Shown in pieces: positions 9,076-59,770 of a stretch of DNA of 64,000 bases. The notes beneath the pieces are model-generated. The model worked only from the letters and a program-made list of their open reading frames with translations. It was not told the origin of the DNA and did no database searches. Both the position numbers and the translations under genes were made by a program. The stretch lies in contig CAWJDT010000001.1 of NCBI GenBank assembly GCA_963841735.1, forward strand, positions 1,152,001-1,216,000, written 5' to 3'. The first letter of the stretch is position 1, and every line of letters starts with the position of its first letter. The stretch is from an uncultured Actinomycetes bacterium (lineage in GTDB: Bacteria > Actinomycetota > Thermoleophilia > RBG-16-64-13).

Positions 9076-10899
9076 CTACTCTATCCGAACCCCGCAGATT
9101 CTCTCGCCCCGCGTGCCCACCACGATCATGTTGCCGTAGGCAGCGGGGGAAGCCTCGATGTTGGTGCCCAGATCGAGTGTGCTGAGTACCTTACCGGTGG
9201 TGCCTTCGAGCAGAAACATGGTGCCCACCGAGTCACACTGCACGATGTAGCTCTTGCCCGTAGAGGTGTAGATGGCGATGGGTGAGCTCCAGCAGTAGTT
9301 GGTCATGTCGGTCTTCCAGATCTCTTCTCCGGTCGCCTTGTCAAGGGCCACCAGGATCCCGGAGTTGGCGCCCGGTGTGCGGGCGATGGGGTAGATCACC
9401 AGATTGGAGATATCGTTCTTGCCCAAGACTGGGGTGGCCTGCACGCCTCCAGAGACCCCGCTTATGGTGTAGCAGGGGTAGTCGGGCGTCTGCCACACGA
9501 TCTCACCGGTGGCCGCGTCTATCTTCCAGATGGGGATGCCGCCCTTGCGGGGCGCACTCCCGGTGGCGGTGATGTGCAGCGAGGTGGAGATGTAGAGGTA
9601 GCAGGTGCCGTCCGCGGGATCTTCCTCGAACACCGGTGTGGAGTTGGTGTCGTCGAGCACGTCTTGGGCCCAGATCATCTTCATGGTGTTCAGATCGAAG
9701 CACATGAGCTTGCCACCGTTATCGCTGACATAGAGGTAGTTGCGCCAGATGACAGCGGAGTCTTCCATGCCCCACCAGCGGTGGTCGGGGGAGTTATCGC
9801 CTACCTCGCTGTAGTTGGGAGCGGTATAGCGCAGCTTGACCGGTTCGTCCGGGTTCACCGTCAGGGTACCGGCGACGGGATCGTACTTGGTATTGAGTTT
9901 GATGGTGTAGAGGATGCCGTTCTCGCCCGGCTCGATGAGCGTGTCGGCGCCCACGTCGAACAGGGCGCTTGAGTCATAGGCATGAAAGGAGCGGAAAGAC
10001 AGAGGGTCGGGCTTCTTGCCGAAAGAGTAGAGCAGCTTCTGATCGATGAGGCTGTAGAGGCGGGCTCGCACCACCTCTCTGTTAAGCGAGTTCTCTCCGT
10101 GGCCCACAAAGAGCATGGGAGTGCCGTCGGGATAGAGGCTGCCGGTGCCTTTGAACGGGCCGCCGCCGCTTTCAAGGACGGGGCGGGTGGCGCTGCCGTC
10201 GGCCAGATCCAGGAAGTAGATGCGGCCATCCAAGCAGGGGTAGATGACCTCGATGAGGTCGGGGTCGGACTTCTTGGCGTCTTTCAAGTTCATGATCTGC
10301 TTGGTGGCCTCGGGCCATTTGACGATGAGTGGTTGCCCGGTCCAGCCCGAGCCGGTCCAGGAGCCTTCTCCGCTGGCTTTGGGGACACTTCCCGAGGGGA
10401 CACTCCACTCCAGGGTCAGTTTGTCCAAGGTGACGTCAGCGGTGCCGTAGGTGGGGCTGTCGCGGTAGTTGTTGCCGCGGAAGGTGATGATTCCCTGAAG
10501 AGGGGTGTAGTCCTTGCCCGGTCCGAAGTCGATGGGGTCGGCCCGGGTGTAGGAAGCGACCTTCTGGCCGTCCACATAGGTGCCGGTGCTTAGGTTAAGA
10601 GCCGCGGGGGCGGTGTCGGCGGCGGCGGCCACCGTCATGTTCACGGTCGCCAGGGTGGTGGTAGTGGATTCGGTGGAGGTCGAACTGGACGAGGAGCTGG
10701 TGGTCGACTGCACGACCGAAGACTCGGTGGTCTGTCCGGAAGTCGGCGGTGTGGAGTCTCCGCCTGGCCAAAGGTATAGGCGCACCACGGTGATGCCCGC
10801 CACCAGTGCGACCAAACAGATGACCATCAGCGCGCGGCGCCAGGCTTTTGCCCGCCTGAGCCCGGAACTCATGTACTCCGACCGTCGACCTTGGTTCAT
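9076..10899 (-). CDS. membrane-anchored PQQ-like beta-propeller protein
   Basis: N-terminal TM, Ser/Thr stalk, TFRGNNYR, GSGWTGQP, repeated D..TGE..W and SSP blades. Confidence 0.8.
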   Translation of the reverse strand: MNQGRRSEYMSSGLRRAKAWRRALMVICLVALVAGITVVRLYLWPGGDSTPPTSGQTTESSVVQSTTSSSSSSTSTESTTTTLATVNMTVAAAADTAPAALNLSTGTYVDGQKVASYTRADPIDFGPGKDYTPLQGIITFRGNNYRDSPTYGTADVTLDKLTLEWSVPSGSVPKASGEGSWTGSGWTGQPLIVKWPEATKQIMNLKDAKKSDPDLIEVIYPCLDGRIYFLDLADGSATRPVLESGGGPFKGTGSLYPDGTPMLFVGHGENSLNREVVRARLYSLIDQKLLYSFGKKPDPLSFRSFHAYDSSALFDVGADTLIEPGENGILYTIKLNTKYDPVAGTLTVNPDEPVKLRYTAPNYSEVGDNSPDHRWWGMEDSAVIWRNYLYVSDNGGKLMCFDLNTMKMIWAQDVLDDTNSTPVFEEDPADGTCYLYISTSLHITATGSAPRKGGIPIWKIDAATGEIVWQTPDYPCYTISGVSGGVQATPVLGKNDISNLVIYPIARTPGANSGILVALDKATGEEIWKTDMTNYCWSSPIAIYTSTGKSYIVQCDSVGTMFLLEGTTGKVLSTLDLGTNIEASPAAYGNMIVVGTRGERICGVRIE

Positions 10900-11143
10900 C
10901 GATCCTGCCTAGGTTTCGGGGTATAGGGCCCGCATGTGTCGTTCGCCCGCCTTCGAGCGACCCTATGCCGTACCGGCGCAGTGTATCAAGGAACCCGCGA
11001 CTGGCGAGGCAACGTCGGCGTTCTGTCACAAATGTGGCATATCCGGAGATATTTAGAGTAGGACTACCGCCTGCTCAGCGTGAGGGGTCGCTCGACCGCC
11101 CTTGTTGAAGCGGCGGTAGGTGGCCCTGTGAAGGCAATGCGGA

Positions 11144-11242
11144 ATGAAGGGAGGCGGATGGACAACAGAGCAGAGCAAGAAGATCGCCAACGCGATCGAA
11201 GACGACAAGGAGTTCAAGGAAAGGAACGAAGGTAAGGAGTGA
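11144..11242 (+). CDS. putative 32-aa small ORF coupled to the hydrolase gene
   Basis: MKGGGWTTEQSKKIANAIEDDKEFKERNEGKE; host-like codons; TGATG overlap with ATG 11242. Confidence 0.3.
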   Translation: MKGGGWTTEQSKKIANAIEDDKEFKERNEGKE

Positions 11243-13005
11243 TGGCCGGGAGACTATGCAAGGTCTTTGCGCTGAGTCTGGTACTTCTGTTTCTTCTGTC
11301 CGCGGTCGCTCTGGCCGACCCGATTCCTGGCGATACCTCTCTAGACCCGATCGAGAGCACTGATCCCGACGCGTACCTCCAGCTTACGCAGGGGCTGGAT
11401 ACATACGAGCAGTTGACGTTCGATCAGTGGTACGCCGCATTGCCCGACTACAACGGGCCGCTTTCATCAGACAAATTCGATGCATCCGTCCTTAGGGGGA
11501 AGGACTTCGCGAGAAACGGCCAGGCGATTGGACAAGCGGTAGCCGCGATGAAGAAGGCGCAACTGTCCGAAAGCGATGATCCCGCGCTTGCGCTGTGGAA
11601 GAAGGCTCACCTCACAAAGCCCATTCCCATCTACAACTTCGATGGCACCATCTATGGGTATCTCTATGGCGTTGTCCACGGGAAGAAGCTCATTGGTCAC
11701 ATGGTTGTGGGTACCAGCGCCAAGGCTCCTCCCATTCTCGAATACTCCACAGGTGCAGGCGAATACCAGAAGTTTGCCGGTGCGGAGAAAATCTACTTTG
11801 GAAGGGCCAATGGTTTTCTCCTCTTGCGCGGCGGCGTTCTTCAGAACGCTGACGAAAAGGATATCGTATACAGGCAGTCGGACCTTAGCGCCTTGCTGTC
11901 GGCGAACGAACCGGCCGTCGACACACAGGCTGCGCTAGATGCGGCTTGGCTCGACTTCGAGGAGGCGGCGGATGCGGCACTTCAAGCCGCGCTTGCACGT
12001 CCCGTGGGTCACTATGTTCCGCTCGACACGTCCGACTATACGTACATGTGGCAGAACAGCTGCCACGCTGTCGCACGTTCGATGTATGTCGATGCCATTG
12101 CCAGGCGGGTCGAGCCCGGGTTTTTTGGCTACGGGCGACCCCATTCGGTCAAGAATGCTCTCTGGTTCTGGAACCACTGTCCGCAGGGAGCGCCTACCTG
12201 GGAAATAATCAACGACCTGCAGCTCTTCCTGACTACCTATAGATCGACAACAGCAATCGCTTTCAATGTGCAATTCAGGGACTCGGGGGATGGCTCGGGG
12301 ACCACGGCGGCACAGGTGTTCGCGGCACTGCAATCTCGAATCAATGCGGGCTGGCCCGCTCTCGTCGGCTATGGAATACCCGGCGGCGGTCATGTGATGA
12401 TGGGGGTGGGGTATACGGACGACAACTTCTACATCTGCCGCGATACGTACACAGAAGATGGGAGCCCCTTCTCCAGCTACTTCGCCTTCGCAGGTGATCG
12501 TACCTGGTACTGCATATGGGCAACGTGGAATGCATCGACCTGGGGCACGCAGACGCTACGCAAGACTAGTTCGGGCACTGACGTCAGGCGTCTTCAGCGC
12601 TTCCTGAATGAGTTGTTCTACACTTGCGCTGTTGACGGCAACTTCGGCACGGGAACCGAGAACGCGGTGAAAGCCTTCCAAAGCGACAACGGGCTGAGCG
12701 CGGACGGAGTCGTTGGTCCCGCCACATACGCCAAGATGAAGGTTGCCCACATCATGCGCTACGACGACTACACAGCGAGCTGGAGGGACCTGAGTACTGG
12801 CAAGAAGGGAGACGACGTCGCGCAAGTGCAGATGAGGCTCATTCGGCGGCAGTATCTGCCCGGTCTCGCCAACTCCGACTGGTCTGCCGCCGACGGCATA
12901 TTCGGATCTCAAACACGGGCGGCCGTCATTGCCTTCCAGGCTGATCACGGTCTTCCGCAGACGGGGACAGTGTCGACTCTCACGTTCCAAGCGTTGACAA
13001 ACTGA
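11242..13005 (+). CDS. secreted papain-like (C39-like) cysteine hydrolase with prodomain and two peptidoglycan-binding domains (copy A)
   Basis: Signal peptide ending ALA; putative Cys (NSCHAV), His (GHVMMGVGY), Asp (RDT); two PG_binding_1 repeats (DVRRLQ..L...DGNFG..T..AVKAFQ..NGL.ADGVVGPAT). Confidence 0.8.
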   Translation: MAGRLCKVFALSLVLLFLLSAVALADPIPGDTSLDPIESTDPDAYLQLTQGLDTYEQLTFDQWYAALPDYNGPLSSDKFDASVLRGKDFARNGQAIGQAVAAMKKAQLSESDDPALALWKKAHLTKPIPIYNFDGTIYGYLYGVVHGKKLIGHMVVGTSAKAPPILEYSTGAGEYQKFAGAEKIYFGRANGFLLLRGGVLQNADEKDIVYRQSDLSALLSANEPAVDTQAALDAAWLDFEEAADAALQAALARPVGHYVPLDTSDYTYMWQNSCHAVARSMYVDAIARRVEPGFFGYGRPHSVKNALWFWNHCPQGAPTWEIINDLQLFLTTYRSTTAIAFNVQFRDSGDGSGTTAAQVFAALQSRINAGWPALVGYGIPGGGHVMMGVGYTDDNFYICRDTYTEDGSPFSSYFAFAGDRTWYCIWATWNASTWGTQTLRKTSSGTDVRRLQRFLNELFYTCAVDGNFGTGTENAVKAFQSDNGLSADGVVGPATYAKMKVAHIMRYDDYTASWRDLSTGKKGDDVAQVQMRLIRRQYLPGLANSDWSAADGIFGSQTRAAVIAFQADHGLPQTGTVSTLTFQALTN

Positions 13006-13030
13006 TGCTGACCCGAAGTGAGGTGCAGTC

Positions 13031-13675
13031 ATGAGACACGTAATCACCCTGCTCCTCTTGGCCACGGGGCTAGTCGTTGTCTCCATCACCACTGCCGGCT
13101 GCGGCAGGGCGGCAACCAATACGACGGGTAGCGTTGAGAGCTCGTCGACTACGCAGGCGCCAACGACCTCGGCCTCTGTCTCCAGCACCACCGAGCTCCC
13201 ATCCACCAGCGCGGCGCCGACCAGCACGCCCACGACTATTGTCGGAGGGTTGCCATTCCCAATGTTGGTGAGCCGGTATAGCAGCCTGCTCGAAGTAGTG
13301 GATGCGCCGGGCATCCTCCCATACTCTTCGATCCCGCCCGAAGAAGGCGCCGCTCTCTTCAAGACCCAAGTCCCTGCCTACGAGCCGGACGTGCAGGGGT
13401 ACCGACTCGCGAACGGAGACGCAGTAGTCATTTTCGGGGCGCCCCTTGCGCCGCCATCAATGGCACAACTCACCGAGGCATTTGCCAACACATACGGCGG
13501 CGAGGGCCGGGAAGTGTTTGCACACTTCTATACCAGCTCGGGCTATCTTGTCGCCTCGAAGGACTACGCGAACAAGCTCGGCATAATGGCTTTGGTTGCC
13601 AGCGCGACTTCAACCCTTGAGCAGGCTATGGCTGCTGTCAAGGAGCCCGGCTTCGGAGACATTCACTACAAATAG
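13031..13675 (+). CDS. lipoprotein with Ser/Thr stalk, partner of the hydrolase (copy A)
   Basis: Lipobox TAGC, S/T-rich linker, domain homologous to 57784-58380. Confidence 0.75.
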   Translation: MRHVITLLLLATGLVVVSITTAGCGRAATNTTGSVESSSTTQAPTTSASVSSTTELPSTSAAPTSTPTTIVGGLPFPMLVSRYSSLLEVVDAPGILPYSSIPPEEGAALFKTQVPAYEPDVQGYRLANGDAVVIFGAPLAPPSMAQLTEAFANTYGGEGREVFAHFYTSSGYLVASKDYANKLGIMALVASATSTLEQAMAAVKEPGFGDIHYK

Positions 13676-13686
13676 CGGGCCCGTGC

Positions 13687-13725
13687 AGCCCGGTCCGCCC
13701 GAAAGAAGCAGGCGGGCCGGGCTTT
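13687..13725. terminator. GC-rich hairpin between convergent lipoprotein gene and tRNA-Ser
   Basis: AGCCCGGTCCGCC / GGCGGGCCGGGCT stem followed by short T run. Confidence 0.6.
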
Positions 13726-13745
13726 GCGAGTCAATGGCGACACAA

Positions 13746-13834
13746 GGCGGAGGGGATGGGATTCGAACCCATGAGACCTTGCGGCCTGCCGGTTTTCAAG
13801 ACCGGTGCGATCGACCAGACTCCGCCACCCCTCC
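13746..13834 (-). tRNA. tRNA-Ser(TGA)
   Basis: GGAGGGG acceptor stem, CCGGT-CTTGAAA-ACCGG anticodon arm, long variable arm, GGTTCGAATCC. Confidence 0.96.
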
Positions 13835-13937
13835 GCGCCTGGATGCGGCCTACCCGGCCGATTCCGTGGGCGGGCGCGAATAGCGGGAGTATAGCTCCTA
13901 GTAGATGAGCTCGCCTTCGCCGATGCCCGGCCTCGGT

Positions 13938-31613: not shown

Positions 31614-34600
31614 GTGAGCGCCGTGAAACCTCCGACTTTTCAAGAAGTGTTGCTGGGCCTGCAGGAGTTCTGGGCCAAGCAGGGCTGCATAGTCTGGCAA
31701 CCGCATCACACCGAGGTGGGCGCAGGGACCTTCAACCCGGCGACCTTCCTCAAGGTCCTTGGACCTGATCCCTGGAAAGTCGCCTACGTGGAGCCTTCCA
31801 TCCGTCCCACCGACGGCCGCTACGGGGAGAACCCCTATCGGTTGGGGCACTACTACCAGTACCAGGTGATCATCAAGCCGTGCCCGGACAACATCCAGGA
31901 TCTCTATTTGGCCTCTTTGGAGCACCTGGGCATCAACCTGGCCGAGCACGACGTGCGCTTTGTGGAGGACGACTGGGAGTCGCCCACCCTGGGGGCGTGG
32001 GGCCTGGGTTGGGAAGTCTGGATCGACGGCATGGAATGCACGCAGTTCACCTACTTTCAGCAGGTGGGCGGCATCGATCTCGATCCCCCCAGTGTGGAGC
32101 TGACCTACGGCACCGAGCGCCTGGCCATGTATCTGCAGGGCAAGGACAGCCTCTTTGACCTGGAGTGGGTGCCGGGCGTTACCTACGGGGACGTCTACAA
32201 GGCCAACGAGGCCCAGTGGTCGGTGTACAACTTCGAGTTGGCCGACATCCCGCTGCTGCAGCGGTCGTTCGTAGACTACGAGCGGGAGTGCGAGCGCTGC
32301 CTGGAGCGGGGGTTGTCCCGGCCGGCGTACGACTTCGTGCTTAAGACCTCACATATGTTCAACCTTCTCGACGCCCGGGGCGCCATCAGCGTGACCGAGC
32401 GCACCGGCTATATCGCCCGGGTGCGCAATCTGGCCCGCAAGGTGGCCGAGACCTACGTGGCCGAGCTGGGGAGCGCCGCGGCCGAGCCGGCGGCCGCTAC
32501 AAGCGCGGCTATGGTCTCCGGTGCCGAGAACGTCTGGATGTCGCCTGGCGATACGAGCGCCCAAGACTTTATGCTCGAGATCGGCGTGGAAGAGATACCG
32601 GCGTCGGCGTGTCGCGCTGCCATCGATCTGCTGCCCGAACGGGTGGCGGGGCTGTTCGCCGCCGAGGGGGTAGAGGTCTCACCCGAGGATGTCGACGTGA
32701 TGGTGTCGCCGCGGCGCATCGCCGTCTTGATAAAGAACGTGCCCGGGGAGCAGGCTCCGCGAGAGATAGTCCAGCGTGGGCCCGCGCTGGAGGCGGCCTT
32801 TGACGCCGAGGGCGTTCCCACCAAGGCCTGCGAGGGGTTTGCCCGGGCCAAAGGGGCCTCGGCCAAAGACCTAGTGGTGCGGGAAGAAGCGGGGCGTAGT
32901 TTCGTGTACTACGTGACCCGCAGTGAAAGCCGGCCCACGGCTGGACTGCTGTCCGAGATCTGTCTGAAGATCGTCCGCGACATGTACTTCCCCAAGAACA
33001 TGCGTTGGGGATACCGCGACGTGCGCTTCTCCCGGCCGGTGCGCTGGTTGGTCGCACTATGGGGCGACACTGTCATCCCCTTCGGGTATGCCGGCCTGAC
33101 CTCCGGCAGGACGAGTCAGGGGCATCGTTGGCTGGGCGGCCCCGCGGACATAGCCCGTTCCGCCGACTACGTCGAGGCCATGCGGAGCGTGGGCGTGGTG
33201 GTGGACCATAGTGAGCGGGAGCACCTCATCTGGTCGGAGCTGGAGAGGATGGCGGCCGAGCAGGGGCTGAAGGTCATCGACCCCAAGGGCAAGATGGAAG
33301 AAGTGCTCTTCTTGGTGGAGAAGCCTACGGTGGCTCTAGGCCGGTTCGACGCGCGGCACTTGACGCTTCCGGCAGAGGTGCTGGAGACGGCCATGCAGTC
33401 TCACCAGCGCTATTTCCCGCTTCTTGAAAAGGACGGGGCCCTCTCCAACATGTTCTTGTGCGTGTCCAACGGCGATCCTGCCTGGATGGACCAGATCACA
33501 GCCGGCAACGAGCGGGTGTTGCAGGGACGCATAGAGGACGCGGAGTTTTCCTTTGACAAAGACAAGGCCACCGGCCTGGAAGCGATGGCCGCTCAATTGG
33601 GCAAGATCGTCTTTCACGTCAAGGCCGGCACCATGAAGGACAAGACCGACCGCCTGGTGGCGCTTACCGGTTATTTGGCAGAGGTGACAGGGGTCGTCGG
33701 CGACGCCCGTGAGCACGCTCTCGAGGCCGCTCGGTTGGCCAAGGCCGACCAGGTGTCGGTGATGGTGCGGGAGTTCGCCGACCTGGAAGGCGTCATGGGC
33801 GAGACCTACGCGCTCATGGAGGGACGCGATGCCGAGGTGGCTCAGGCCATCCGCGAGCAATTTCTGCCCGACGCAGCCGGCGGAGCGGTGCCGGAGACCT
33901 TGCCCGGGGCTCTGTTGGCCACAGCTGAGAAGGTGGACAACATCGCGGCCGCCTTTGCCTGCGGGGAACCGCCCTCAGGCTCCAAAGACCCTTACGGCCT
34001 GCGCCGGGCTGCCGCCGGTATGGTGGCTATCGCCACGCACCACGGACTGCGCTATGACGTGGAGAAGCTACTGGGAAGGGCCTATGGGCAGTTGGAGCGC
34101 TTCCCAGGACTGGTGGAGCGCGGCAAAGTGCTCACCGAGGGCACCGCCTTTGTACTTGAGCGTCTGGCCAAGACCCTCACCGATGACGGCGTGGCTCGCG
34201 ATACCGTGGACGCGGTCTTGCCCACGTCACGCGACTTCTTGGATCTGCGGGCCCGGGCCTTCGCACTGCATGAGTTCCGTTCGGGCGACAAGTGGGACGA
34301 TTTGGTAACGCTGTTCAGCCGGCCCTCCAACTTGGCCAAGAAGCTCCCGGTCGACGCGGCCGTTCATGCTTCGGAGGTCACGGGCGGGGTGTCGCCCGCG
34401 CAGTTCCAGGTGGACGCTGAGCCGGCGCTGTTCGCCGCTTGGCAGGAGGCCGCCGCGCAGAGCGCGGCGGCTGTGCAGGCGGGCCTCTACGGTGAGGCTC
34501 TAGCTGCCCTGGCGGGGCTGCGGCCGGCCGTGGACCGCTACTTCACCGACGTGCTGGTGATGGCCCAGGACGAGGCTGTGCGTATCAACCGGTTGCGCCA

Positions 34601-34661
34601 ACTGGCTGCCATCGCGGCCACGGTGCGCAGCGTGGCCTGGCTGGAGCTGGTCCAGGGCTGA
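31614..34661 (+). CDS. glyQS: glycine--tRNA ligase, fused alpha and beta subunits
   Basis: [32 protein letters not shown] (alpha) continuous with [26 protein letters not shown] (beta). Confidence 0.95.
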
Positions 34662-43431: not shown

Positions 43432-45327
43432 GCCCTGAGTTGAGCCCGATGATCAAAGACGGCAGCTTGCAGGCGGTGCTGTCGGCGGCGAACATCGTTG
43501 ACGTTATTTCGGGCTACACCAGCCTGCGCAAGCGGGGGGCGACTCATAGCGGCCTGTGCCCGTTTCATCAGGAGAAGACCCCGTCATTCACCGTGAGCGC
43601 CGACAAGGGCCTGTACTACTGTTTCGGATGCGGAGAAGGTGGAGACGTCGTCCGCTTTCTGGAGCGTAAGGAGAACCTTTCCTTCAGCGAGGTCATCGAG
43701 CAGTTGGGCGAGCGGTTCGGCGTGCCGGTGGAATACGAAGAGGGGGCTGGTCCCGACAGCGGTCGCAAGGAGCGCGACGCCCGCCTGCTGCAACTGCTCG
43801 ACCGGGCGTCGAAGTTTTATGAGGCGTTGCTGTGGGAATCGGAAAGTGGCCGTGCCGGGCGGGACTATCTGGAGAAGCGTGGGCTGACCACGGAAGTGTG
43901 CCGCGCGTTCCGGGTGGGTTACTCGCCCGAAGGGTGGAGAGGTCTGCACACTCGTGCGACCAAGGAAGGGTTCACCGACCGTGAGCTCGAAGACACGGGG
44001 CTTCTGGTTTGCCAGACGGGAAAGACGTACGATCGCTTCAGAGGTCGTCTTATGTTCCCGCTGGCAGATCACCGCGGAAGGGTCCTGGGCTTTGGGGGGA
44101 GGACGCTGACGGATGAGACTCCTAAGTATCTCAACTCGCCAGAGGGACCCCTATACCAGAAGGGGCGTCTGCTATACGGGCTCTACCAGGCTAGAAAGGC
44201 CGTTGCCGACCTCGATGAGGTCGTGGTGGTAGAGGGCTACACAGACGTGCTGGGGCTGGTGCAGGCCGGCGTGGGCAACGTAGTCGCCTCCATGGGGACT
44301 GCGCTCACCGACGCCCAGGTGGATCTGATGAAGCGCTTCACCGGGAACATCACCTTCATGTTCGATGCCGACCGGGCCGGCACCGAGGCCATGCTGCGTT
44401 CGGGCGAGTTGGCCCGGGGCCATTCGCTGCGGCCCATGGTGGCCGTTTTGCCGGTTGGGAAGGACCCCGCCGACGTGGCCGTGCAAGGCGGTAAGGAGGC
44501 CGTCGCCAAAGTGATGGCCGGCAAGATCTCGCTGCTGGGGTTCGAGCTGCGCCAGGCCCTCGTTCGGGGCGACACTTCCAGCGCCGACGGGCGGGTGCGG
44601 GTGTTCGAGGATGCGCAGAGGATCATGGCCGGGGCCTCCTCCTTCAAGGAACGAGAAGAGGAGATCCCGCTGTTGGCCGACAGGCTCCGGTTGACGCCCG
44701 AGAGTGTGGAACTGCTGTTGCGAGGCGAGGCACCCCCGGCTCGCGCGAGCGAGCGGGGTTCCAACCCGGCGCGGGCTTCCGGCCGAGAGCGAAGGCCTGG
44801 AGGTGTGCAGGGGCCCGCTGGTAAGGCCCAGCCTTCCATGGCCCGGCGTCTTCTCAGTGGGGAGGCGGCCGTGGAGGGGGACTTCTTGGTGGCGGCGGCC
44901 TGCAATCCGGCCCTTGCCGGCGACATGCTCCAGGCCTTGACCCCCGAGCATTTCGCCGATCCGCGTAACCGCGAAGTGTTCTTGGGTCTCCGCGAAGCGC
45001 TCGCGGCGGTGACCGGCCCTCGAGGACCACCAGGCCGCACTGGCCAAGCTCAAAGTGCACGCCCACGGCAGTTCCGATGCCGGTCCGCTTTTCGTGCGTC
45101 TGGTCATGGAGGCAGACCAAGGACAGTACGCTCCGGCAACGCTCGAGCTGATCCATCTTCGTCTTCAGGAACAGTACCTAGGTCGCGAGATCAGCGCGAA
45201 GCAGGGCGCGCTTGATCGCGGCGACGACACAGAGCAGGCGCAGCGGCGTCTTTTCAAGCTTCAGCGTCTGCACCAACAGGTGCGAGAGCGCATCAAGAGC
45301 TACGACCCGGACGAGGGGCGGGGTTGA
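43428..45327 (+). CDS. dnaG: DNA primase (frameshift near 45017)
   Basis: [46 protein letters not shown]. Confidence 0.93.
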
Positions 45328-45328
45328 G

Positions 45329-46414
45329 ATGGCACCGGACGACTCAGCGCTGACGGCCGATGTCCTGCAGGGAGTGCTGGAACAGGCTCAGACCCAGGGC
45401 TCTCTTACCATTGACGACGTGAGTGGGTTGGTGCAAGACGCCGACTTGGCTCCGGACGAGGTCGAGTTCCTCTACTCCCTGTTGGGCGATCTCGGAGTCG
45501 AGGTGGAAGAAGAACAGGCTGAGGAGCAGGAAGACTTCTCGGAGGAAGAGGAGTTTCTCGGCCTGCTCGACGTGACCATCGACCACACTGTCGACGATCC
45601 GGTACGCATGTACCTGCGCGAGATAGGCAAGATCCGATTGTTGTCTTCGGACGAGGAGATCGAGCTGGCCAGGCTGATCGAGAAGAAGGACGTGGAGGCC
45701 AAGCGCCGGCTGACCGAGGCCAATCTGCGCCTGGTTGTCTCCATCGCCAAGCGCTACATGGGCCGGGGGCTGCTGTTCCTTGACCTCATCCAAGAAGGGA
45801 ATTTGGGCCTGATCAGGGCGGTGGAGAAGTTCGACCACCGGCTGGGGTACAAGTTCTCCACCTATGCCACCTGGTGGATCCGCCAGGCCGTTACCCGGGC
45901 TATCGCCGATCAGGCGCGTACCATCCGGGTGCCGGTGCATGCCGTAGAGACGATGAACAAGCTCAATCGCATCCATAGGGAACTGCTGCAGACCAGCGGC
46001 CGCGAGCCCACGGTGAACGAGATGGCCGCCGTTCTGGGGGTCAGCCCTGGCAAAGTCAGGGACATCCAGAAAGCAACCCAAGAGCCCGTGTCGTTGGAGA
46101 CCCGGGTGGGGGACGATGAGGACTCGGAACTGGGAGACTTCATCGCGGATGCCGACGCCGACCAGCCGATCGAGGTGGTTTTCAGGGAGATCCGACGAGA
46201 GGAACTCTTCCGGGTTTTGGACAGCTTGCCCGAGCGTGACCGCAAGGTGCTCGAACTGCGCTTTGGCTTGAAAGGAGAGCGTCCTCGCACTCTGGAAGAG
46301 GTGGGCGAACGGTTTGGCGTGACCAGGGAGCGCATCCGCCAGGTGGAAGCCAAGACCCTGAAGCGTCTGAAGAACTATCGTAATGCTCAGGCCTTGCGCG
46401 ATATCGAGAGCTGA
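45329..46414 (+). CDS. rpoD: RNA polymerase sigma factor RpoD/SigA type (dnaG-linked)
   Basis: [51 protein letters not shown]. Confidence 0.92.
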
Positions 46415-50804: not shown

Positions 50805-51944
50805 TTGGGGGGGCGGGAATTGACAGGAACGCCTGCTTCAGAAGGCTGGGTTATCAACCCCGAAGAGGTTGATGCGCTTGTTGAGTTGGGCCGCGGGCGT
50901 GGGTTTGTCACGGCCGAGGACATCGCTGAGGTCCTGTCTGAGCTGGACCTCACTACCGAACAGATCGAGTCCATGTACACCACTCTGCTCGATCAGGGCA
51001 TCGAAGTGGTGGACGAGACTTCGGCGGACGCGGAAGAAGAGCTTGAGCTGGATGTTCGGGCGGAGCGGCAGGAATGGCGCCGGGGGGCGGACGAGCTCGA
51101 CCTATCCGTGGACGTTCCCACTACCGATCCGGTGCGCATGTACCTCAAGGAGATCGGCCGAGTCAAGCTGCTCACAGCCCAGCAGGAGGTCTCTCTGGCC
51201 AAGCGCATCGAGCGGGGCGATATTCGAGCCAAGCATGAGCTGACCGAAGCTAACCTCCGCCTGGTGGTCTCCATCGCCAAGCGCTACCACACCGACGGAA
51301 TGGCCTTTCTTGATTTGATCCAAGAGGGGAATCTGGGTCTCATTCGCGCGGTGGAGAAGTTTGACTACCGCAAAGGGCACAAGTTCTCCACCTACGCGAC
51401 CTGGTGGATCAGGCAGGCCATCACCCGGGCCATCGCCGACAAGGCCCGCACCATCCGCATCCCCGTGCACATGGTGGAGAAGATCAACAAGCTTATCCGG
51501 GTGCAGCGGCAGCTCTTGCAGAACATGGGGCGGGAGCCCGCTCCCGAGGAGATCGCCTCCGAGATGAGCATGAGTGACGCCGAGATCCGCGAGATCCTGC
51601 GCATCAGTCAGACCACCGTTTCGCTGGAGACTCCGATAGGCGAAGAAGAGGATTCAGAATTAGGCGATTTCATCGAAGACGAGGACGCCGTGCGCTCCTT
51701 CGACGCAGTCGCCCTGCAGCTTGACCGCGACGGGGTAAACGAAGCCCTGGCTATGCTTCCCTACCGGGAGCGCAAGGTCATCGAACTCCGCTTCGGCCTC
51801 AAGGGCGAGCACCCACGCACCCTAGAAGAGGTGGCGAAGCGGTTCGGGGTCACCCGGGAACGCATACGTCAGATCGAGGCGAAGGCCTTGGCCAAGCTGC
51901 AGGCCATCGACAAGACCCGCAACCTGCGGACCAAGGTGCAATAG
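50805..51944 (+). CDS. second RpoD-type sigma-70 factor with region 1.1
   Basis: [12 protein letters not shown] (region 1.1), [39 protein letters not shown]; exact start uncertain. Confidence 0.9.
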
Positions 51945-54935: not shown

Positions 54936-55007
54936 GGGCGATTAGCTCAGTGGGAGAGCGCTGCATTCACACTGCAGAAGTCACTGGTTCAAATCCAGTA
55001 TCGCCCA
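54936..55007 (+). tRNA. tRNA-Val(CAC)
   Basis: GGGCGAT acceptor stem, CTGCA-TTCACAC-TGCAG anticodon arm, GGTTCAAATCC; TTGGCG-N18-TATCAT promoter upstream. Confidence 0.96.
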
Positions 55008-55039
55008 TCCTCGTCGTCACGAATACAACGTTTACCCTG

Positions 55040-55795
55040 TAAAGAGGCACCTTCTGGTGTTCGCTCTTCTCCATGGGAACACGCTCTCAGATGGTGCCTT
55101 GACAGACGCTGATGGGGGAATTACTATGCGGCAAACTAGTCGCTGCGAAGTCAGATAGGTTGGGACCCATCAGGGGGTGTTTACGTGCGCCCCGTCCCAT
55201 GTTCTGGCTCCAGAGCAGATGCATTGTTCGTCTGCGCAGTCGGGTCGTATCTCTTGGTGTTCTGTCCTACCCTTGGCGCTTGGCGTCCAGTCTCACGGTC
55301 CGCATTGTCGCAAAGGCATGGCGGCCTCCTTGCGCGGGGGTCTCTGCGCAATCCTAGACGAGAGAACCAGAGCGAGTGGAGTCAAAGCTGGTTCGGCGAG
55401 GGAGCGAGAAGGCGCGCACGTGTATTGATGTCGCAAGGGGTTCGCTTGATGAGCGGCCTTCATCTTGGCAGGGTTGGCGAAGATGAAGGACGTTGTCAGG
55501 GGCTCCAGCGAGACCCGCTATCACACGGGGGACGACGGAACCGGGAAGGAAAGACGATCTTCTGGAACCGCAAGGCGGGACCGAGACAGGACCGAAGGCC
55601 GGGAGGGTCTCTGAGGACGCACAGAAACGATGCGGCTCGCGGCACTTGGAAAGCATAGCGGCGCAATAGAGCTGGGTCTACGGGCCCAGCGGCCGCCCCA
55701 GCGTTCGTCGGGTTGACCGCCGGGTTCAATGCGGAGAGGAGCCACCCGCGTGGGAACAGTCTGTGTCAGGTGATCTTCGGTCTTGTCACAGGGTT
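55040..55795. other. long hairpin-rich non-coding region, possible structured RNA
   Basis: No credible ORF; at least six 7-10 bp stems. Confidence 0.3.
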
Positions 55796-55826
55796 CGCGA
55801 ATTGAACTGGGCGAAAGGGGTAAGGC

Positions 55827-57755
55827 ATGTTGAAGGGAGTAGGCGCTGCCGTAGTCTTGAGTCTGCTACTAACGTTCGTCATCGTCGGGCCTGCGCTTGC
55901 GGACCCGATTCCCGGTGATCCGTCCCTGCAGACCATCGATCCCGCTGATCCCAACGCCTACCTTTCACTCACACAGGGCCTTGATGTTTACTACTACGGC
56001 GACGACTTCTCGATGAAGGAGTGGCTGGCAAGCCTACCGGACTACAGCGGGGACTTGCTTTCCGCTTCCTGGGATCCCACGACGATTTCCAAGAAGGATT
56101 TCAAGAAACAGGGCAAGGAGCTGAGCCGCTCGGTCGCTGCTCTTTACAAAGACGTATTGTCGAAGGACGAGGACCCCAGGTTCAAATGCTGGAAACAGGC
56201 CGAACTCACCGTTCCCGTGACGGTCTACAACCTGGACGATACCGTCTTCGGCTACCTGTACGGCTTGGCCTACAAGGGCAAGTTGGTCGGCCAGATTGTG
56301 GCTGGAGCGTGTACCAAGGCTCCGCCCGTGCTCGAGTATTCGCTCGACGCTGGTAGATACCTTGTCTTGGCGTCCGAAGGGAAGGTCTACTTCTCCAAAG
56401 CCGCGGGGTTCGTGGTTCGCCATTCGGGCGAAGTGCAGGACGCCCTGACCGGCGCTTCAATCTGTACTGACGACGACATCGGGTTGGCTGAGGCAAGTGA
56501 GCCGACCGCGGCAGAGCAGGCAGCCGTGGATGGCGAATGGGCGAAGACCGCGACCATGGCCTCATTCGGAGAGCCTGACCTCGACGGAATGGGCACCACC
56601 GTGGTCGGCGCCGTCGCGGGCCCAGGTCCCTTTGACGCTCCGAACGCGGAAACGGCAAGTGGGCTGGGAACCAAGGTCTATCTCAGTATGGACACCAGCG
56701 ACATCGGGACCCGCAACATCTGCTGGTCCACGTCGGCAACCATGTTCATTGACGCCTTGGCTCGGAGAATTGAACCAGGCTTATTCTCCCCCAGCCAATA
56801 TTCCCTCATTCATCCCCACTCCATAGTAATAAACGACTGGTACTTCGGGCACTACAACAACGTGGACTGGGACGGGGACGGGCAGGTCACCAACAAAGAC
56901 ATCAGCTGGTATCTAAGTGACTATCTCAATAGCAGTAGTCACAAGCTCCAGTCCAACATGAGCTTTTCCAGGTTCTACTACGACCCAGCCGATGGCTATT
57001 CCGCTGCAACCGTGTTCGCCCAGCATAGAAGCAAGATAGATTCTGGCTGGCCTGACCAGGTGGCATATGCAATATCATCCGGTTCCCACGCGATGTGCGG
57101 CGTTGGGTACACCACCGGTGGATACTACATCGTGAGAGACACCTTCGTCCTCGAGGGAAGGCCATTCGCGGCTTTTCTGTATACCTGGTCGGGTTACACC
57201 TACTTGATCTACGGCGCTACCTACTCCAGCTCGTCGGCCTCCTCGACCTGGGGGACGGTCACCCTGCAGTTGGGCAGCAACAACATCGAGGTCAAGAGGC
57301 TGGAGTGCTTCCTAAAGGCGCTCTACTACTTTTCGGGAACTCCCGATAAATATTTCGACTCGACGACTAAAGCGGCGGTTCAGGCTTTCCAGAGCGACAA
57401 CGGTCTGACTGTGGACGGCATCGTTGGTTCGAACACCTATGCGAAGATGAAGGTGGCCCACATCATGCGCTTTGACAATCGGACCGCCAACTGGAGAACC
57501 CTACAGTCGGGCAAGAAGGGTGACGACGTGGCCCAGCTGCAGTATCGGCTCGCCTGCATTAACCATCAGCCGCACTTCTACACTGGGAGCATCGACGGAG
57601 TATTTGGCTCTGGAACGCAGAGCGCCGTTCAGGCGTTTCAGCAGTACATGAACACGAACTACGGTGGCTATGGTGGCTCTCTCCTCACCGTTGACGGTAT
57701 CGCCGGTATCAATACGATGAAAGCACTTGTGTACACCCATTTCCAGGATGGATGA
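55827..57755 (+). CDS. secreted papain-like (C39-like) cysteine hydrolase with prodomain and two peptidoglycan-binding domains (copy B)
   Basis: Signal peptide ALA-DPIPGD as in copy A; putative Cys (NICWST), His (SHAMCGVGY), Asp (RDT); two PG_binding_1 repeats. Confidence 0.8.
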   Translation: MLKGVGAAVVLSLLLTFVIVGPALADPIPGDPSLQTIDPADPNAYLSLTQGLDVYYYGDDFSMKEWLASLPDYSGDLLSASWDPTTISKKDFKKQGKELSRSVAALYKDVLSKDEDPRFKCWKQAELTVPVTVYNLDDTVFGYLYGLAYKGKLVGQIVAGACTKAPPVLEYSLDAGRYLVLASEGKVYFSKAAGFVVRHSGEVQDALTGASICTDDDIGLAEASEPTAAEQAAVDGEWAKTATMASFGEPDLDGMGTTVVGAVAGPGPFDAPNAETASGLGTKVYLSMDTSDIGTRNICWSTSATMFIDALARRIEPGLFSPSQYSLIHPHSIVINDWYFGHYNNVDWDGDGQVTNKDISWYLSDYLNSSSHKLQSNMSFSRFYYDPADGYSAATVFAQHRSKIDSGWPDQVAYAISSGSHAMCGVGYTTGGYYIVRDTFVLEGRPFAAFLYTWSGYTYLIYGATYSSSSASSTWGTVTLQLGSNNIEVKRLECFLKALYYFSGTPDKYFDSTTKAAVQAFQSDNGLTVDGIVGSNTYAKMKVAHIMRFDNRTANWRTLQSGKKGDDVAQLQYRLACINHQPHFYTGSIDGVFGSGTQSAVQAFQQYMNTNYGGYGGSLLTVDGIAGINTMKALVYTHFQDG

Positions 57756-57783: not shown

Positions 57784-58380
57784 ATGGCACGGCTAGTTAT
57801 TTGCGCAACGCTGATCCTGTCTCTGGTAGCGATCATCGCGATATCCGGGTGCGCCGGGAGAACCACCACAACCACGGCCCCGGTTTCGACTACCACTACC
57901 TTAACTACCAGCAGCACTTCCGGCCAGTCCTCTTCGACCGGCTCGGGTCCTTCAACCACGATGGTCATGGGGCAGACCTGGCAAGAGGTCATCAGCCGTT
58001 TCACGACAAGCGTAACTGAGGCGAATCTGCCTGGTACTTTGCCGTACTCGATGCTCCCCGAGGACGAGGTCGCGTGGCTCCTCGGCACTGACGCTGCTAT
58101 TCACCCCGCCTCCGTCAGTGGCTTTAGGTTTGCCAACGGGGATCTGGTCATACTCTTCGGTGGGAGCATGCTGGTGGATTGGGACCCGCTCCAGGAGCCA
58201 GATTCTACTAAGGTGCTGTCGGACGCGCAAACGGCACTGCAGGGAATGGCCGAGGCCAGGTATCAGGTTTCCGGGAAGAGCGTAGAGGCGACCGTGTTTG
58301 ACCTGGCGTTCGGATTCATAGTGGTAGCGGGCAAGGACGCGGGACAACTCGGGGGCCTCGCTCTCTCTGCTCATGTGTGA
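57784..58380 (+). CDS. lipoprotein with Thr/Ser stalk, partner of the hydrolase (copy B)
   Basis: AAGGAGG RBS, lipobox ISGC, PGTLPYS and GFRFANGDLVILFG shared with copy A. Confidence 0.75.
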   Translation: MARLVICATLILSLVAIIAISGCAGRTTTTTAPVSTTTTLTTSSTSGQSSSTGSGPSTTMVMGQTWQEVISRFTTSVTEANLPGTLPYSMLPEDEVAWLLGTDAAIHPASVSGFRFANGDLVILFGGSMLVDWDPLQEPDSTKVLSDAQTALQGMAEARYQVSGKSVEATVFDLAFGFIVVAGKDAGQLGGLALSAHV

Positions 58381-58710
58381 ATCCGCAAGGTAGCTTCGCA
58401 CTTGGCCATGACCGGCGGCAAAGAATCGAGGCATGAGAAGGGGGCGGCCCGGCAGCCGCCCGCTTCTTGCTACTTTCGAGCAGGATACGTGCAGCAAGAA
58501 TCCCGACCGCCGACCGGTCGTCTAGCTCGCGCGGGCTGGTACAAAGGCGACCAAGCTAGTCAATTAGCCGACTCACTTCGGGCCGCAGGTTCAGAAGCTG
58601 TCCAGTTGGGTCCACTATCGTTGTCGAATTGACAACAGTCCTCCTTCAAATACGCCGCTTTCGATGTCCGGTTGCCCACCCGGTCGCTCGAGGTCCCAAG
58701 AGTATCAGCA

Positions 58711-58754
58711 TGGACAATTCCCAAGTTGGGTATTACTATTCCCACAATGGGAAT
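58711..58754 (+). promoter_or_regulatory. sigma-70 promoter with two palindromic operators
   Basis: TGGACA-N17-TACTAT; ATTCCCAAGTTGGGTAT (58717-58733) and ATTCCCACAATGGGAAT (58738-58754). Confidence 0.7.
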
Positions 58755-59352
58755 ATTAGGACAGGAACATGTTCGGATTGCTGACGCCCTTTTCACCAAG
58801 GTACAGCAGAGGGTGCTCGGCATTCTGTTCGGCCAGCCGGACAAGAGCTTCCTCTCAAAGGAAATCATCATTCTTGCAGACTCAGGTACTGGGGCGGTTC
58901 ACCGGGAACTCAAGCGTCTGACTGCGAGTGGTCTCCTTACGGTCTGCAGTGTCGGCTGGGAGAAGCACTATCAGGCCAACCGAGAATCACCCGTGTTCGA
59001 TGAGTTGCGCGGTCTCGTCGTGAAGACGGTTGGGTTCGTCGACCCCATGCGAGACGCGCTGGCTCCACTTGCCGGCAGGATCCAAGTGGCCTTCGTATAC
59101 GGCTCGCATGCCAAGGGTATGGATACAGCGTCTAGCGACGTGGATTTGATGATCGTGAGTGAGGACCTTTTGCATGCCGAGGCATACGCGGCGCTTGCCA
59201 AAGCAGAGCAGACGCTGGCGAGGCCCATCAATCCAACCATAGTCTCATTGACTGAATGGCGGCGGCGGGGAGAGGATCATAATCACTTCCTGGAGAATGT
59301 GTCGACGCATCCGAAGCTTCTCGTCCTGGGGTCGGAAGATGACCTTGCCTGA
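58747..59352 (+). CDS. wHTH + minimal nucleotidyltransferase (MNT antitoxin-like)
   Basis: LF.KVQQRVLGILFGQP, G.GAVHRELKRL, YQAN..SPVF.EL, YGSHAKG.D...SDVDLMIV. Confidence 0.85.
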   Translation: MGILGQEHVRIADALFTKVQQRVLGILFGQPDKSFLSKEIIILADSGTGAVHRELKRLTASGLLTVCSVGWEKHYQANRESPVFDELRGLVVKTVGFVDPMRDALAPLAGRIQVAFVYGSHAKGMDTASSDVDLMIVSEDLLHAEAYAALAKAEQTLARPINPTIVSLTEWRRRGEDHNHFLENVSTHPKLLVLGSEDDLA

Positions 59353-59770
59353 TCTCGAAAACCTAGTAGCCGCCGGAAGACTCAAGCGCGAGCCCCCCAA
59401 TCAGAATGAGTTTGACGATCTGACTATGCTCGGAGAGGCCAGGTTTCGAGACGCACAGGTCGCTTCACTCTCCTTGGAGAGTCGGTTTGACCTTGCATAT
59501 GGTGCCTCGCACGCGTTTGCGCTGGCGGCGCTTCGCTGGCATGGCTATCGATCGGACCTTCGGTATGTCGTGTTTCAGTCTCTGGAGCATACGCTGGGCG
59601 TGTCGCGGGATATCTGGCGCGTGCTTGACAAGGCACACGGGGCGCGAAATGCGGCCGACTACGGTGGTAACTTCCAGGTCAACGAGCGCCTGTTGCAGGA
59701 TATGCTCGCTGCCATCACAGTGGTGCGGCAGAGAGTGCTGGGTCTCGGTGCCAGCCCTTGGCAGGACTAA
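59339..59770 (+). CDS. HEPN-like protein partnered with MNT
   Basis: SLESRFDLAY, ALAALRWHGYRS, VFQSLEHTLG, RNAADYGG; overlaps the MNT stop. Confidence 0.7.
   Translation: MTLPDLENLVAAGRLKREPPNQNEFDDLTMLGEARFRDAQVASLSLESRFDLAYGASHAFALAALRWHGYRSDLRYVVFQSLEHTLGVSRDIWRVLDKAHGARNAADYGGNFQVNERLLQDMLAAITVVRQRVLGLGASPWQD

Follow-up and report, generated by a model that had tools for sequence, protein, structure and literature searches.

A papain-fold, zymogen-type enzyme with peptidoglycan-binding domains and an adjacent lipoprotein: a candidate wall-directed effector-immunity or protease-inhibitor cassette in an uncultured Actinomycetes bacterium

Staphopain- and SpeB-type zymogens are host-protein proteases of pathogens and commensals. 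In the available part of one source, the Bfp proteins of Bacteroides fragilis are described as mobile papain-fold zymogens encoded beside predicted inhibitors (Bfi), some of which are lipoproteins, with insertion at a tRNA 3′ end (PMC2873492). Excerpts of other papers describe EatI, of the type VII secretion system (T7SS) pair EatA/EatI, as a lipoprotein inhibitor (PMC13444075) and name MOG1P and PsbP as structural neighbours of the muramidase immunity protein Tsi3 (PMC3792639). Peptidase_C39_2 is named as one of the catalytic domains that Gram-positive phage lysins carry (PMC8223927), the C39-like peptidase of B. anthracis is matched by a domain from the lysin of a mycobacteriophage (PMC3314691), and C39_2-type domains occur as polymorphic toxin tips (PMC3482391). 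Here we describe a two-gene cassette, present twice in a 64,000-nucleotide stretch (the window) of the genome of an uncultured Actinomycetes bacterium (contig CAWJDT010000001.1), which encodes a secreted papain-fold enzyme and a lipoprotein. The cassette is real, conserved and unnamed, and is a variant on the theme of a zymogen protease with a candidate inhibitor or immunity partner.

The first pair (copy A) comprises the following features, in window coordinates.

11242 to 13005, plus strand: enzyme of 587 residues from an ATG, with signal peptide, prodomain, papain-fold catalytic domain and two PG_binding_1 domains.
11242 to 11316, plus strand: signal peptide, residues 1 to 25, with A-L-A at its end (sequence inspection, without a predictor).
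11317 to 11994, plus strand: acidic prodomain, residues ~26 to 251, net charge −13; the pro-regions of prostaphopain and prointerpain align from residue ~90.
11995 to 12537, plus strand: catalytic domain, papain-fold, clan CA, C39_2-like, with Cys274 (12061), His384 (12391) and Asp401 (12442).
12538 to 13002, plus strand: two PG_binding_1 domains with a family-specific AHIMxYD linker between them (Pfam, alignment and model).
13031 to 13675, plus strand: lipoprotein of 214 residues, with a type II signal and Cys24, a Ser/Thr stalk (residues 25 to 69) and an alpha+beta domain (residues 70 to 214).

The open reading frames and Pfam bore out the two-gene layout of the original prediction, its three catalytic codons and its two peptidoglycan-binding stretches. 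The lipoprotein starts 25 bp past the enzyme, as had also been noted, and has a hydrophobic leader running to the lipobox-type Cys24 and a stalk of which 56% is Ser or Thr. A recurrence of the pair 44 kb away had likewise been claimed, and a second pair (copy B) lies at a distance of 44.6 kb.

55827 to 57755, plus strand: copy B enzyme, 642 residues, with Cys299, His421 and Asp438 (Pfam and comparison with copy A).
57784 to 58380, plus strand: copy B lipoprotein, 198 residues, with Cys23 (comparison with copy A).

The two copies were 40% identical in the enzyme (E 1e-140) and 31% in the lipoprotein (E 1e-14), and tblastn detected no third copy in the 2.8-Mb, 89.7%-complete assembly. The junction between enzyme and lipoprotein was bridged by contigs from three of four public sequencing runs (X1 record 6, X2 record 14 and X6 record 24); the X6 contig was 100% identical and possibly derives from the source sample, so that it is not independent of the assembly.

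In a Pfam scan of the whole copy A enzyme, the paired PG_binding_1 domains (E 1.5e-36) were the sole family above the cut-off. The excised catalytic regions matched Peptidase_C39_2 (PF13529) with E values of 0.007 for copy A and 0.002 for copy B, scores of 17.4 and 18.9 bits that miss the gathering cut-off of 24 bits. A weak match to this family was found in most members of the enzyme family (best, 2e-6 in P0024), and the cut-off was passed in the relatives P0019 (26.2 bits), P0021 (25.3 bits) and P0024 (28.9 bits). Peptidase_C47, Staphopain_pro and Peptidase_C10 gave no Pfam match, so the enzyme falls outside the C10 and C47 families by sequence, and Pfam assigned it to neither NlpC/P60 nor CHAP. 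A profile built from the pro and catalytic regions of both copies was searched against 1.84 billion representative sequences and gave 31 matches at E ≤ 0.001, 17 of them at ≤ 1e-10. The strong matches had an architecture in common, consisting of a pro-region, a weak C39_2 region and two PG_binding_1 domains, and weak, distant matches (P0039, E 4.9e-6) tied the N-terminal region to Inhibitor_I69. No PDB sequence matched the family profile at E ≤ 10. In a 24-row family alignment, the catalytic Cys was conserved in 19 of 19 aligned residues, the His in 20 of 20 and the Asp in 19 of 20. Four positions ahead of the catalytic Cys, where the family has a Trp, copy B and P0012 carry a Thr (Thr295 in copy B, window position 56709); this change may alter the oxyanion pocket or the specificity.

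An AlphaFold2 model of the enzyme (pLDDT 78, pTM 0.78, with low confidence for residues 18 to 57) gave its best Foldseek matches with prostaphopain B (E 8.7e-4, 419 columns), pro-SpeB (1.6e-3) and prointerpain A (1.9e-3). These zymogen matches extended over both the pro and the catalytic regions, 1x9y aligning over model residues 90 to 432 and 3bb7 over 121 to 431. With the prodomain folded within the whole protein, VIA-align superposed the pro and catalytic regions on 1x9y with a Z of 11.0 (rmsd 5.1, 268 aligned) and on 3bb7 with a Z of 11.8 (rmsd 3.5, 222 aligned). Z values of 11 to 12.6 were obtained for SpeB, interpain, the C39-like 3erv of B. anthracis, IdeS, PeiR and staphopain, top rows that are too near each other to be ranked, and cathepsins were also within the papain-fold neighbours (Z range 10 to 12.6). 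PeiR, a wall-lytic pseudomurein endoisopeptidase, matched the catalytic domain with a Z of 11.8 (rmsd 2.8, 128 aligned). In the model, Cys274 opens a helix (274 to 289), His384 lies in a strand (382 to 392) and Asp401 follows a strand (397 to 400). ESM Atlas neighbours included C39_2 clusters (0.94 to 0.95) and staphopain (0.92). On this modelling, the enzyme is a predicted clan CA papain-fold zymogen with a prodomain fold of the Spi/staphopain type, and a modelled fold of this kind cannot decide between a protein and a wall substrate. The model and fold searches thus supported the earlier proposal of a wall-binding zymogen resembling SpeB and staphopain. Of the domain matches that had been expected, PG_binding_1 and a staphopain-pro-like fold were obtained, and Peptidase_C39_2 was below its cut-off in both copies and above it in some relatives.

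The alpha+beta domain of the copy A lipoprotein carries the motifs PGxLPYS, GYRLANGD and GYxxxS. None of 21 members of the lipoprotein family had a Pfam match above the cut-off. The modelled domain (pLDDT 88; alpha+beta, five helices) had no Foldseek match at E ≤ 0.001. Its best structural neighbour was the extracellular domain of PknH (4esq; Z 7.6, rmsd 3.2, 115 aligned), followed by TM1622 (1vr8; Z 6.9), 4tmd (6.0), 7cu8 (6.0) and MucB (5.7), with Rv0999 and TiME also among the best neighbours and every neighbour at a Z below 8; Tsi3 reached a Z of only 4.1. We take PknH, TM1622, Rv0999 and TiME to belong to a Mog1p/PsbP-like class. As a lead rather than an assignment, the modelled domain would most resemble extracellular folds of the Mog1p/PsbP type. 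Spi and staphostatin were absent from the 50 structural neighbours listed for the domain, and on this evidence the partner is probably not Spi-like. Prediction of a complex between the mature enzyme (residues 252 to 587) and the lipoprotein domain scored 0.01 against a mark of 0.32 and was counted neither for nor against interaction.

Pattern scans for enzyme loci in other lineages yielded three from GTDB genomes (two Christensenellaceae and one Clostridia) and nine from metagenomes. Two loci were uninformative and were left out of the pairing count, L034 having a truncated gene 111 bp from the contig end and L050 a contig that stops inside the gene. A lipoprotein-type open reading frame lay directly downstream, starting within ~45 bp of the enzyme stop, in 10 of 10 informative loci from five lineages, so homologs of the enzyme do not mostly occur without a lipoprotein, an outcome that had been named as a possible refutation. 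The enzymes of these loci were only 30 to 42% identical to copy A and came from different bacterial classes, with gene order and strand constant. Six of the ten partners were homologous to the window lipoprotein family (29 to 31 bits with the hidden Markov model [HMM], a score reached by 0 of 1,000 shuffles; hhalign probability 96.9, E 1.6e-10), two ran off the contig, and for two, at L033 and L049, homology was unproven (hhalign probability 0.1 and 9.8; 1 and 9 of 1,000 shuffles reached their score with the clostridial HMM). Among 401 genomes of the order of the Christensenellaceae isolate, the enzyme was strong in two and the lipoprotein profile was found in one, twice, flanking the enzyme only. 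At L032 and L045, a second partner copy without a lipobox Cys lies upstream. Just upstream of the Christensenellaceae cassette, at L032 163 to 1308, there is an Amidase_6 (CHAP-like) protein (E 4e-45).

Copy A, copy B, L043 and an enzyme remnant of genome G011 formed one group in the enzyme tree with moderate support (95/94), the enzymes of L032 and L044 formed a group of their own, as did their partners, and a specific lipoprotein subfamily accompanied each enzyme clade. With few pairs, the trees are in line with co-divergence of the two proteins. The adjacent pair is conserved and its partner carries a lipobox-type signal, which is the gene layout of an effector-immunity system. Interrupted enzymes stood beside intact lipoproteins at L033 and L046/L047.

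The lipoprotein domain also occurred without the enzyme. The host class sample consisted of 300 other genomes, 55 of the host's own family and 245 others, in 12 families. The domain was present in 11 of the 55 and in none of the 245, and the enzyme was absent from all 60 host-family genomes; weak matches in G004 (a frame with a stop), G299, G443 and G544 (partial, E ≥ 6e-6) were not counted as members. The domain occupied 14 places, 12 of them outside the window, and 12 of the 14 were without an enzyme. In G011 (L013), an intact lipoprotein lies right behind an 86-residue C-terminal enzyme remnant that corresponds to the last PG-binding domain. The 11 places free of both enzyme and remnant comprised two stand-alone lipoproteins, seven fusions to other extracellular domains and two frameshifted or fragmentary genes. 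Among the fusions, L014 6812 to 8311 carries the domain in a membrane-anchored anti-sigma-like protein within a cluster of ECF sigma/anti-sigma-like pairs, and at L037 5839 to 7056, L039 5202 to 6461, L040 4698 to 6125 and L041 4749 to 6104 it follows a domain of ~150 residues (C.....LIVxGTV...VFYV.P.E.LKG) that has no Pfam match and may be TIMP/NTR-like. The lipoprotein had been called dedicated to the enzyme, and every informative enzyme locus did have one. In the host class sample, on the other hand, 12 of the 14 places with the domain lacked an enzyme, and the domain was often fused there. On sequence grounds, this pattern would fit orphan immunity and, equally, a reusable surface domain, and it weakens the term.

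Both pairs of the window lie near tRNA genes.

13678 to 13732, unstranded: GC-rich hairpin past the stop codon of the lipoprotein and before the convergent tRNA-Ser gene, a likely terminator (z −2.5; 1 of 200 shuffles as stable).
13746 to 13834, minus strand: tRNA-Ser(TGA), with copy A at its 3′ side.
54936 to 55007, plus strand: tRNA-Val(CAC), with copy B 820 bp beyond its 3′ end.

By blastn, 2.75 kb lie between the tRNA-Ser and a PQQ-propeller gene in the window; in G004 the distance is 0.62 kb, and the two are also close in G013, so that copy A is missing at the syntenic site in two close relatives. The enzyme and lipoprotein genes were found in none of 10 tRNA-Ser and none of 12 tRNA-Val loci of same-genus genomes, and homology ended at the end of the tRNA-Val in all 12. 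The GC content at third codon positions (GC3) of the pairs was 0.69 to 0.72 versus 0.82 to 0.84 in six housekeeping genes (dnaG, 0.74). Neither tRNA 3′ end was repeated in att-like form around the window copies, where long direct repeats and an integrase were also not detected, and positions 10800 to 13900 held no match to a sigma-70-type promoter. Elsewhere, L034 adjoins an integrase and a tRNA-Val, and L044, L046, L048 and L049 lie near long open reading frames that look by eye like insertion sequence genes. Searches of phages, plasmids and viral contigs gave no match to the full enzyme architecture, and a prophage or plasmid origin was rejected on this basis; PHROGs gave nothing under E 0.04, and fold matches in BFVD were to phage lysin-type proteins over short stretches, consistent with the PG-binding domains. 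With a genome of 63% GC and a class sample of only 12 families, the host is not a clostridium. Its 16S rRNA and SerS sequences point weakly towards Actinomycetota; as the best 16S matches were at 83.0 to 82.7% identity to actinomycetes and at 82.9% to Bacillus, this placement is a lead only. Comparative sequence evidence indicates that the cassette is rare, patchy, at variable insertion sites and, apparently, horizontally spread.

Several other features of the host and window were observed. The 820 bp of lower-GC DNA between the tRNA-Val and copy B (55008 to 55826) contain no recognisable gene and were unmatched at the loci of 12 relatives. Directly after copy B, at 58672 to 59770, lie a nucleotidyltransferase (Polbeta) gene and a partner of 157 residues (GC3 0.63), with similar pairs near L047 and L039; we take these to be MNT-HEPN toxin-antitoxin-like. 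Two full-length RpoD-type sigma-70 genes less than 6 kb apart occupy 45212 to 46414 and 50805 to 51944, one following dnaG and the other gatAB, and the alpha and beta subunits of glycyl-tRNA synthetase are fused in a single frame of 1,015 residues (31614 to 34661). Other PG_binding_1 proteins of the host (G000 C1:722511-724172, C4:108392-110035 and C5:280516-281463) presumably have cell-wall-binding-2 repeats and an L,D-transpeptidase-type HGC motif at their ends, which would suggest a CWB2-type surface layer.

The reading that we favour, while giving it a little less than an even chance, is of a mobile effector-immunity cassette for cell-wall attack, consisting of a Sec-exported, pro-activated wall hydrolase and its cognate lipoprotein immunity protein. 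The enzyme would be exported via Sec as an inactive zymogen, its prodomain would be removed outside the cell, and the PG_binding_1 pair would dock the mature form on peptidoglycan, where it would cleave peptide bonds in the stem or the cross-bridge of the wall of monoderm cells nearby. The lipoprotein would stand out from the producer membrane on its Ser/Thr stalk and would bind and block its cognate enzyme on the wall of the producer itself, and relatives would retain or recycle the protective gene once the enzyme was lost. We infer inhibition, binding between the two proteins and a peptidoglycan substrate, as the original prediction did. In favour of this reading are the likeness of the fold to PeiR, the conserved triad residues, the pairing at all ten informative loci, the own partner subfamily of each enzyme clade, the insert at the tRNA-Ser, the low GC3 and the asymmetric decay in which intact partners outlast the enzyme (G011, L033 and L046/L047). 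A number of observations weigh against it. The closest zymogens, those of staphopain, SpeB and interpain, cleave proteins, and PG_binding_1 is found on protein-cutting S41 proteases too (matches to CtpB and lmo1851), so that these domains may merely localise the enzyme. The fold match of the lipoprotein was middling, even to PknH, and the L033 and L049 partners are without demonstrated homology. At 11 of the 14 host-class places, the flanks examined held neither enzyme nor remnant and the genomes had no enzyme match, and the seven fusions, one in an anti-sigma-like membrane protein near ECF sigma genes, fit a general-purpose surface module. Enzyme breaks in metagenome contigs are possibly assembly errors. 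Neither a delivery system nor a toxin-like variable C-terminus was seen; no WXG100 protein was found in the host's own 89.7%-complete genome, which argues against T7SS delivery of an enzyme that has a Sec-type signal peptide.

The same observations on the closest zymogens also suit a wall-tethered protein endoprotease with a cognate inhibitor, on the model of staphopain/staphostatin, SpeB/Spi or Bfp/Bfi. PG_binding_1 would here keep the enzyme on the producer wall to cut proteins of the surface layer or the environment, and the lipoprotein would protect the membrane from misdirected cleavage. This account is rather doubtful in its own right and nearly as likely as that of a wall hydrolase. It draws on the nearest whole-zymogen folds and on the conserved pairing, and the Bfp C10 proteases are, in the part of the paper available, co-transcribed with predicted inhibitors and mobile, one of them at a tRNA 3′ end (PMC2873492). 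Wall-lytic papain folds scored equally, however, and intact partners after enzyme loss, together with the duplicated partner in L032/L045, suggest use against the enzymes of other cells. Taken together, the two accounts make cognate inhibition quite probable. The lipoprotein might instead be a positive partner that gives the zymogen an anchor or activates it, as a folding or maturation factor, a receptor on the surface or a substrate, which we consider unlikely; its fold is like that of ligand-binding and sensor domains (PknH, TM1622 and MucB) and the domain is also met in fusions with other surface proteins and with an anti-sigma-like protein, but an obligate activator would give no reason for intact retention after enzyme deletion, as in G011. 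Least probable is passive adjacency of two surface-protein genes co-travelling on an islet without interaction: the lipoprotein domain is often alone and tRNA 3′ sites gather unrelated genes, yet order, strand and gaps of less than ~45 bp stay constant despite 30 to 42% enzyme identity across classes, and the trees point to co-divergence.

A bolder extension of the favoured wall-hydrolase reading, which we regard as speculative and somewhat unlikely, is that the enzyme is a papain-fold, prodomain-gated, Sec-exported bacteriolysin with a new lipoprotein immunity family, that Clostridia and a deep-branching, high-GC lineage have passed the pair to one another in anoxic habitats, and that the many orphan and fused immunity domains of the host family are defences acquired against it. 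If true, monoderms would be attacking each other's walls without need of contact, by means of a zymogen design that has so far been known from virulence proteases directed at hosts. The cassette adds to such zymogens PG-binding domains and a surface lipoprotein whose fold is different, its hosts being uncultured monoderms of the environment and the gut, and it would represent either a new, switchable (prodomain-gated) lysin class or a new type of inhibitor for cysteine proteases.

The literature covered, which excluded supplements, where such genes could be listed, and most subscription papers, yielded no description of such an architecture. Among known systems, staphopain/staphostatin (MEROPS C47 and I57-I58) resembles the cassette in having a secreted zymogen of pro-region and papain fold with a small partner gene directly downstream. 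Unlike staphopain, the cassette enzyme has no Pfam match to C47 or Staphopain_pro, has two PG_binding_1 domains and has as its third catalytic residue an Asp in RDT; staphostatin is lipocalin-like according to the available text (PMC2873492), whereas the cassette partner is an alpha+beta lipoprotein. With SpeB/Spi and interpain (C10 and Inhibitor_I69), the prodomain and catalytic fold align and distant prodomain homologs match Inhibitor_I69, but the enzyme has no C10 match and the downstream gene, without a Pfam match in 21 members, is probably no propeptide analogue. Bfp/Bfi, as far as the accessible text describes it, shares the mobile zymogen-inhibitor-type pair with lipoproteins and the tRNA 3′ end; the cassette differs in its monoderm-type hosts, PG-binding domains and unrelated partner fold, and neither an integrase nor an att repeat was detected near its copies in the window. 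The Peptidase_C39_2 proteins (PF13529; phage lysins and Tox-PL-C39) are linked to the cassette by the weak Pfam match in most members and by ESM Atlas neighbours, and are set apart from it by the curated cut-off that copies A and B miss and by the absence of the full architecture from the phages, plasmids and viral contigs searched. Tae/Tai and Tse3/Tsi3 of the T6SS (type VI secretion system) and EatA/EatI of the T7SS are perhaps similar in combining a wall-directed enzyme with an adjacent surface immunity protein, and Tsi3 may have a Mog1p/PsbP-like neighbourhood in common with the cassette lipoprotein. In contrast to these T6SS and T7SS pairs, the cassette enzyme has a Sec signal peptide and a prodomain, and its own genome has no WXG100 protein.

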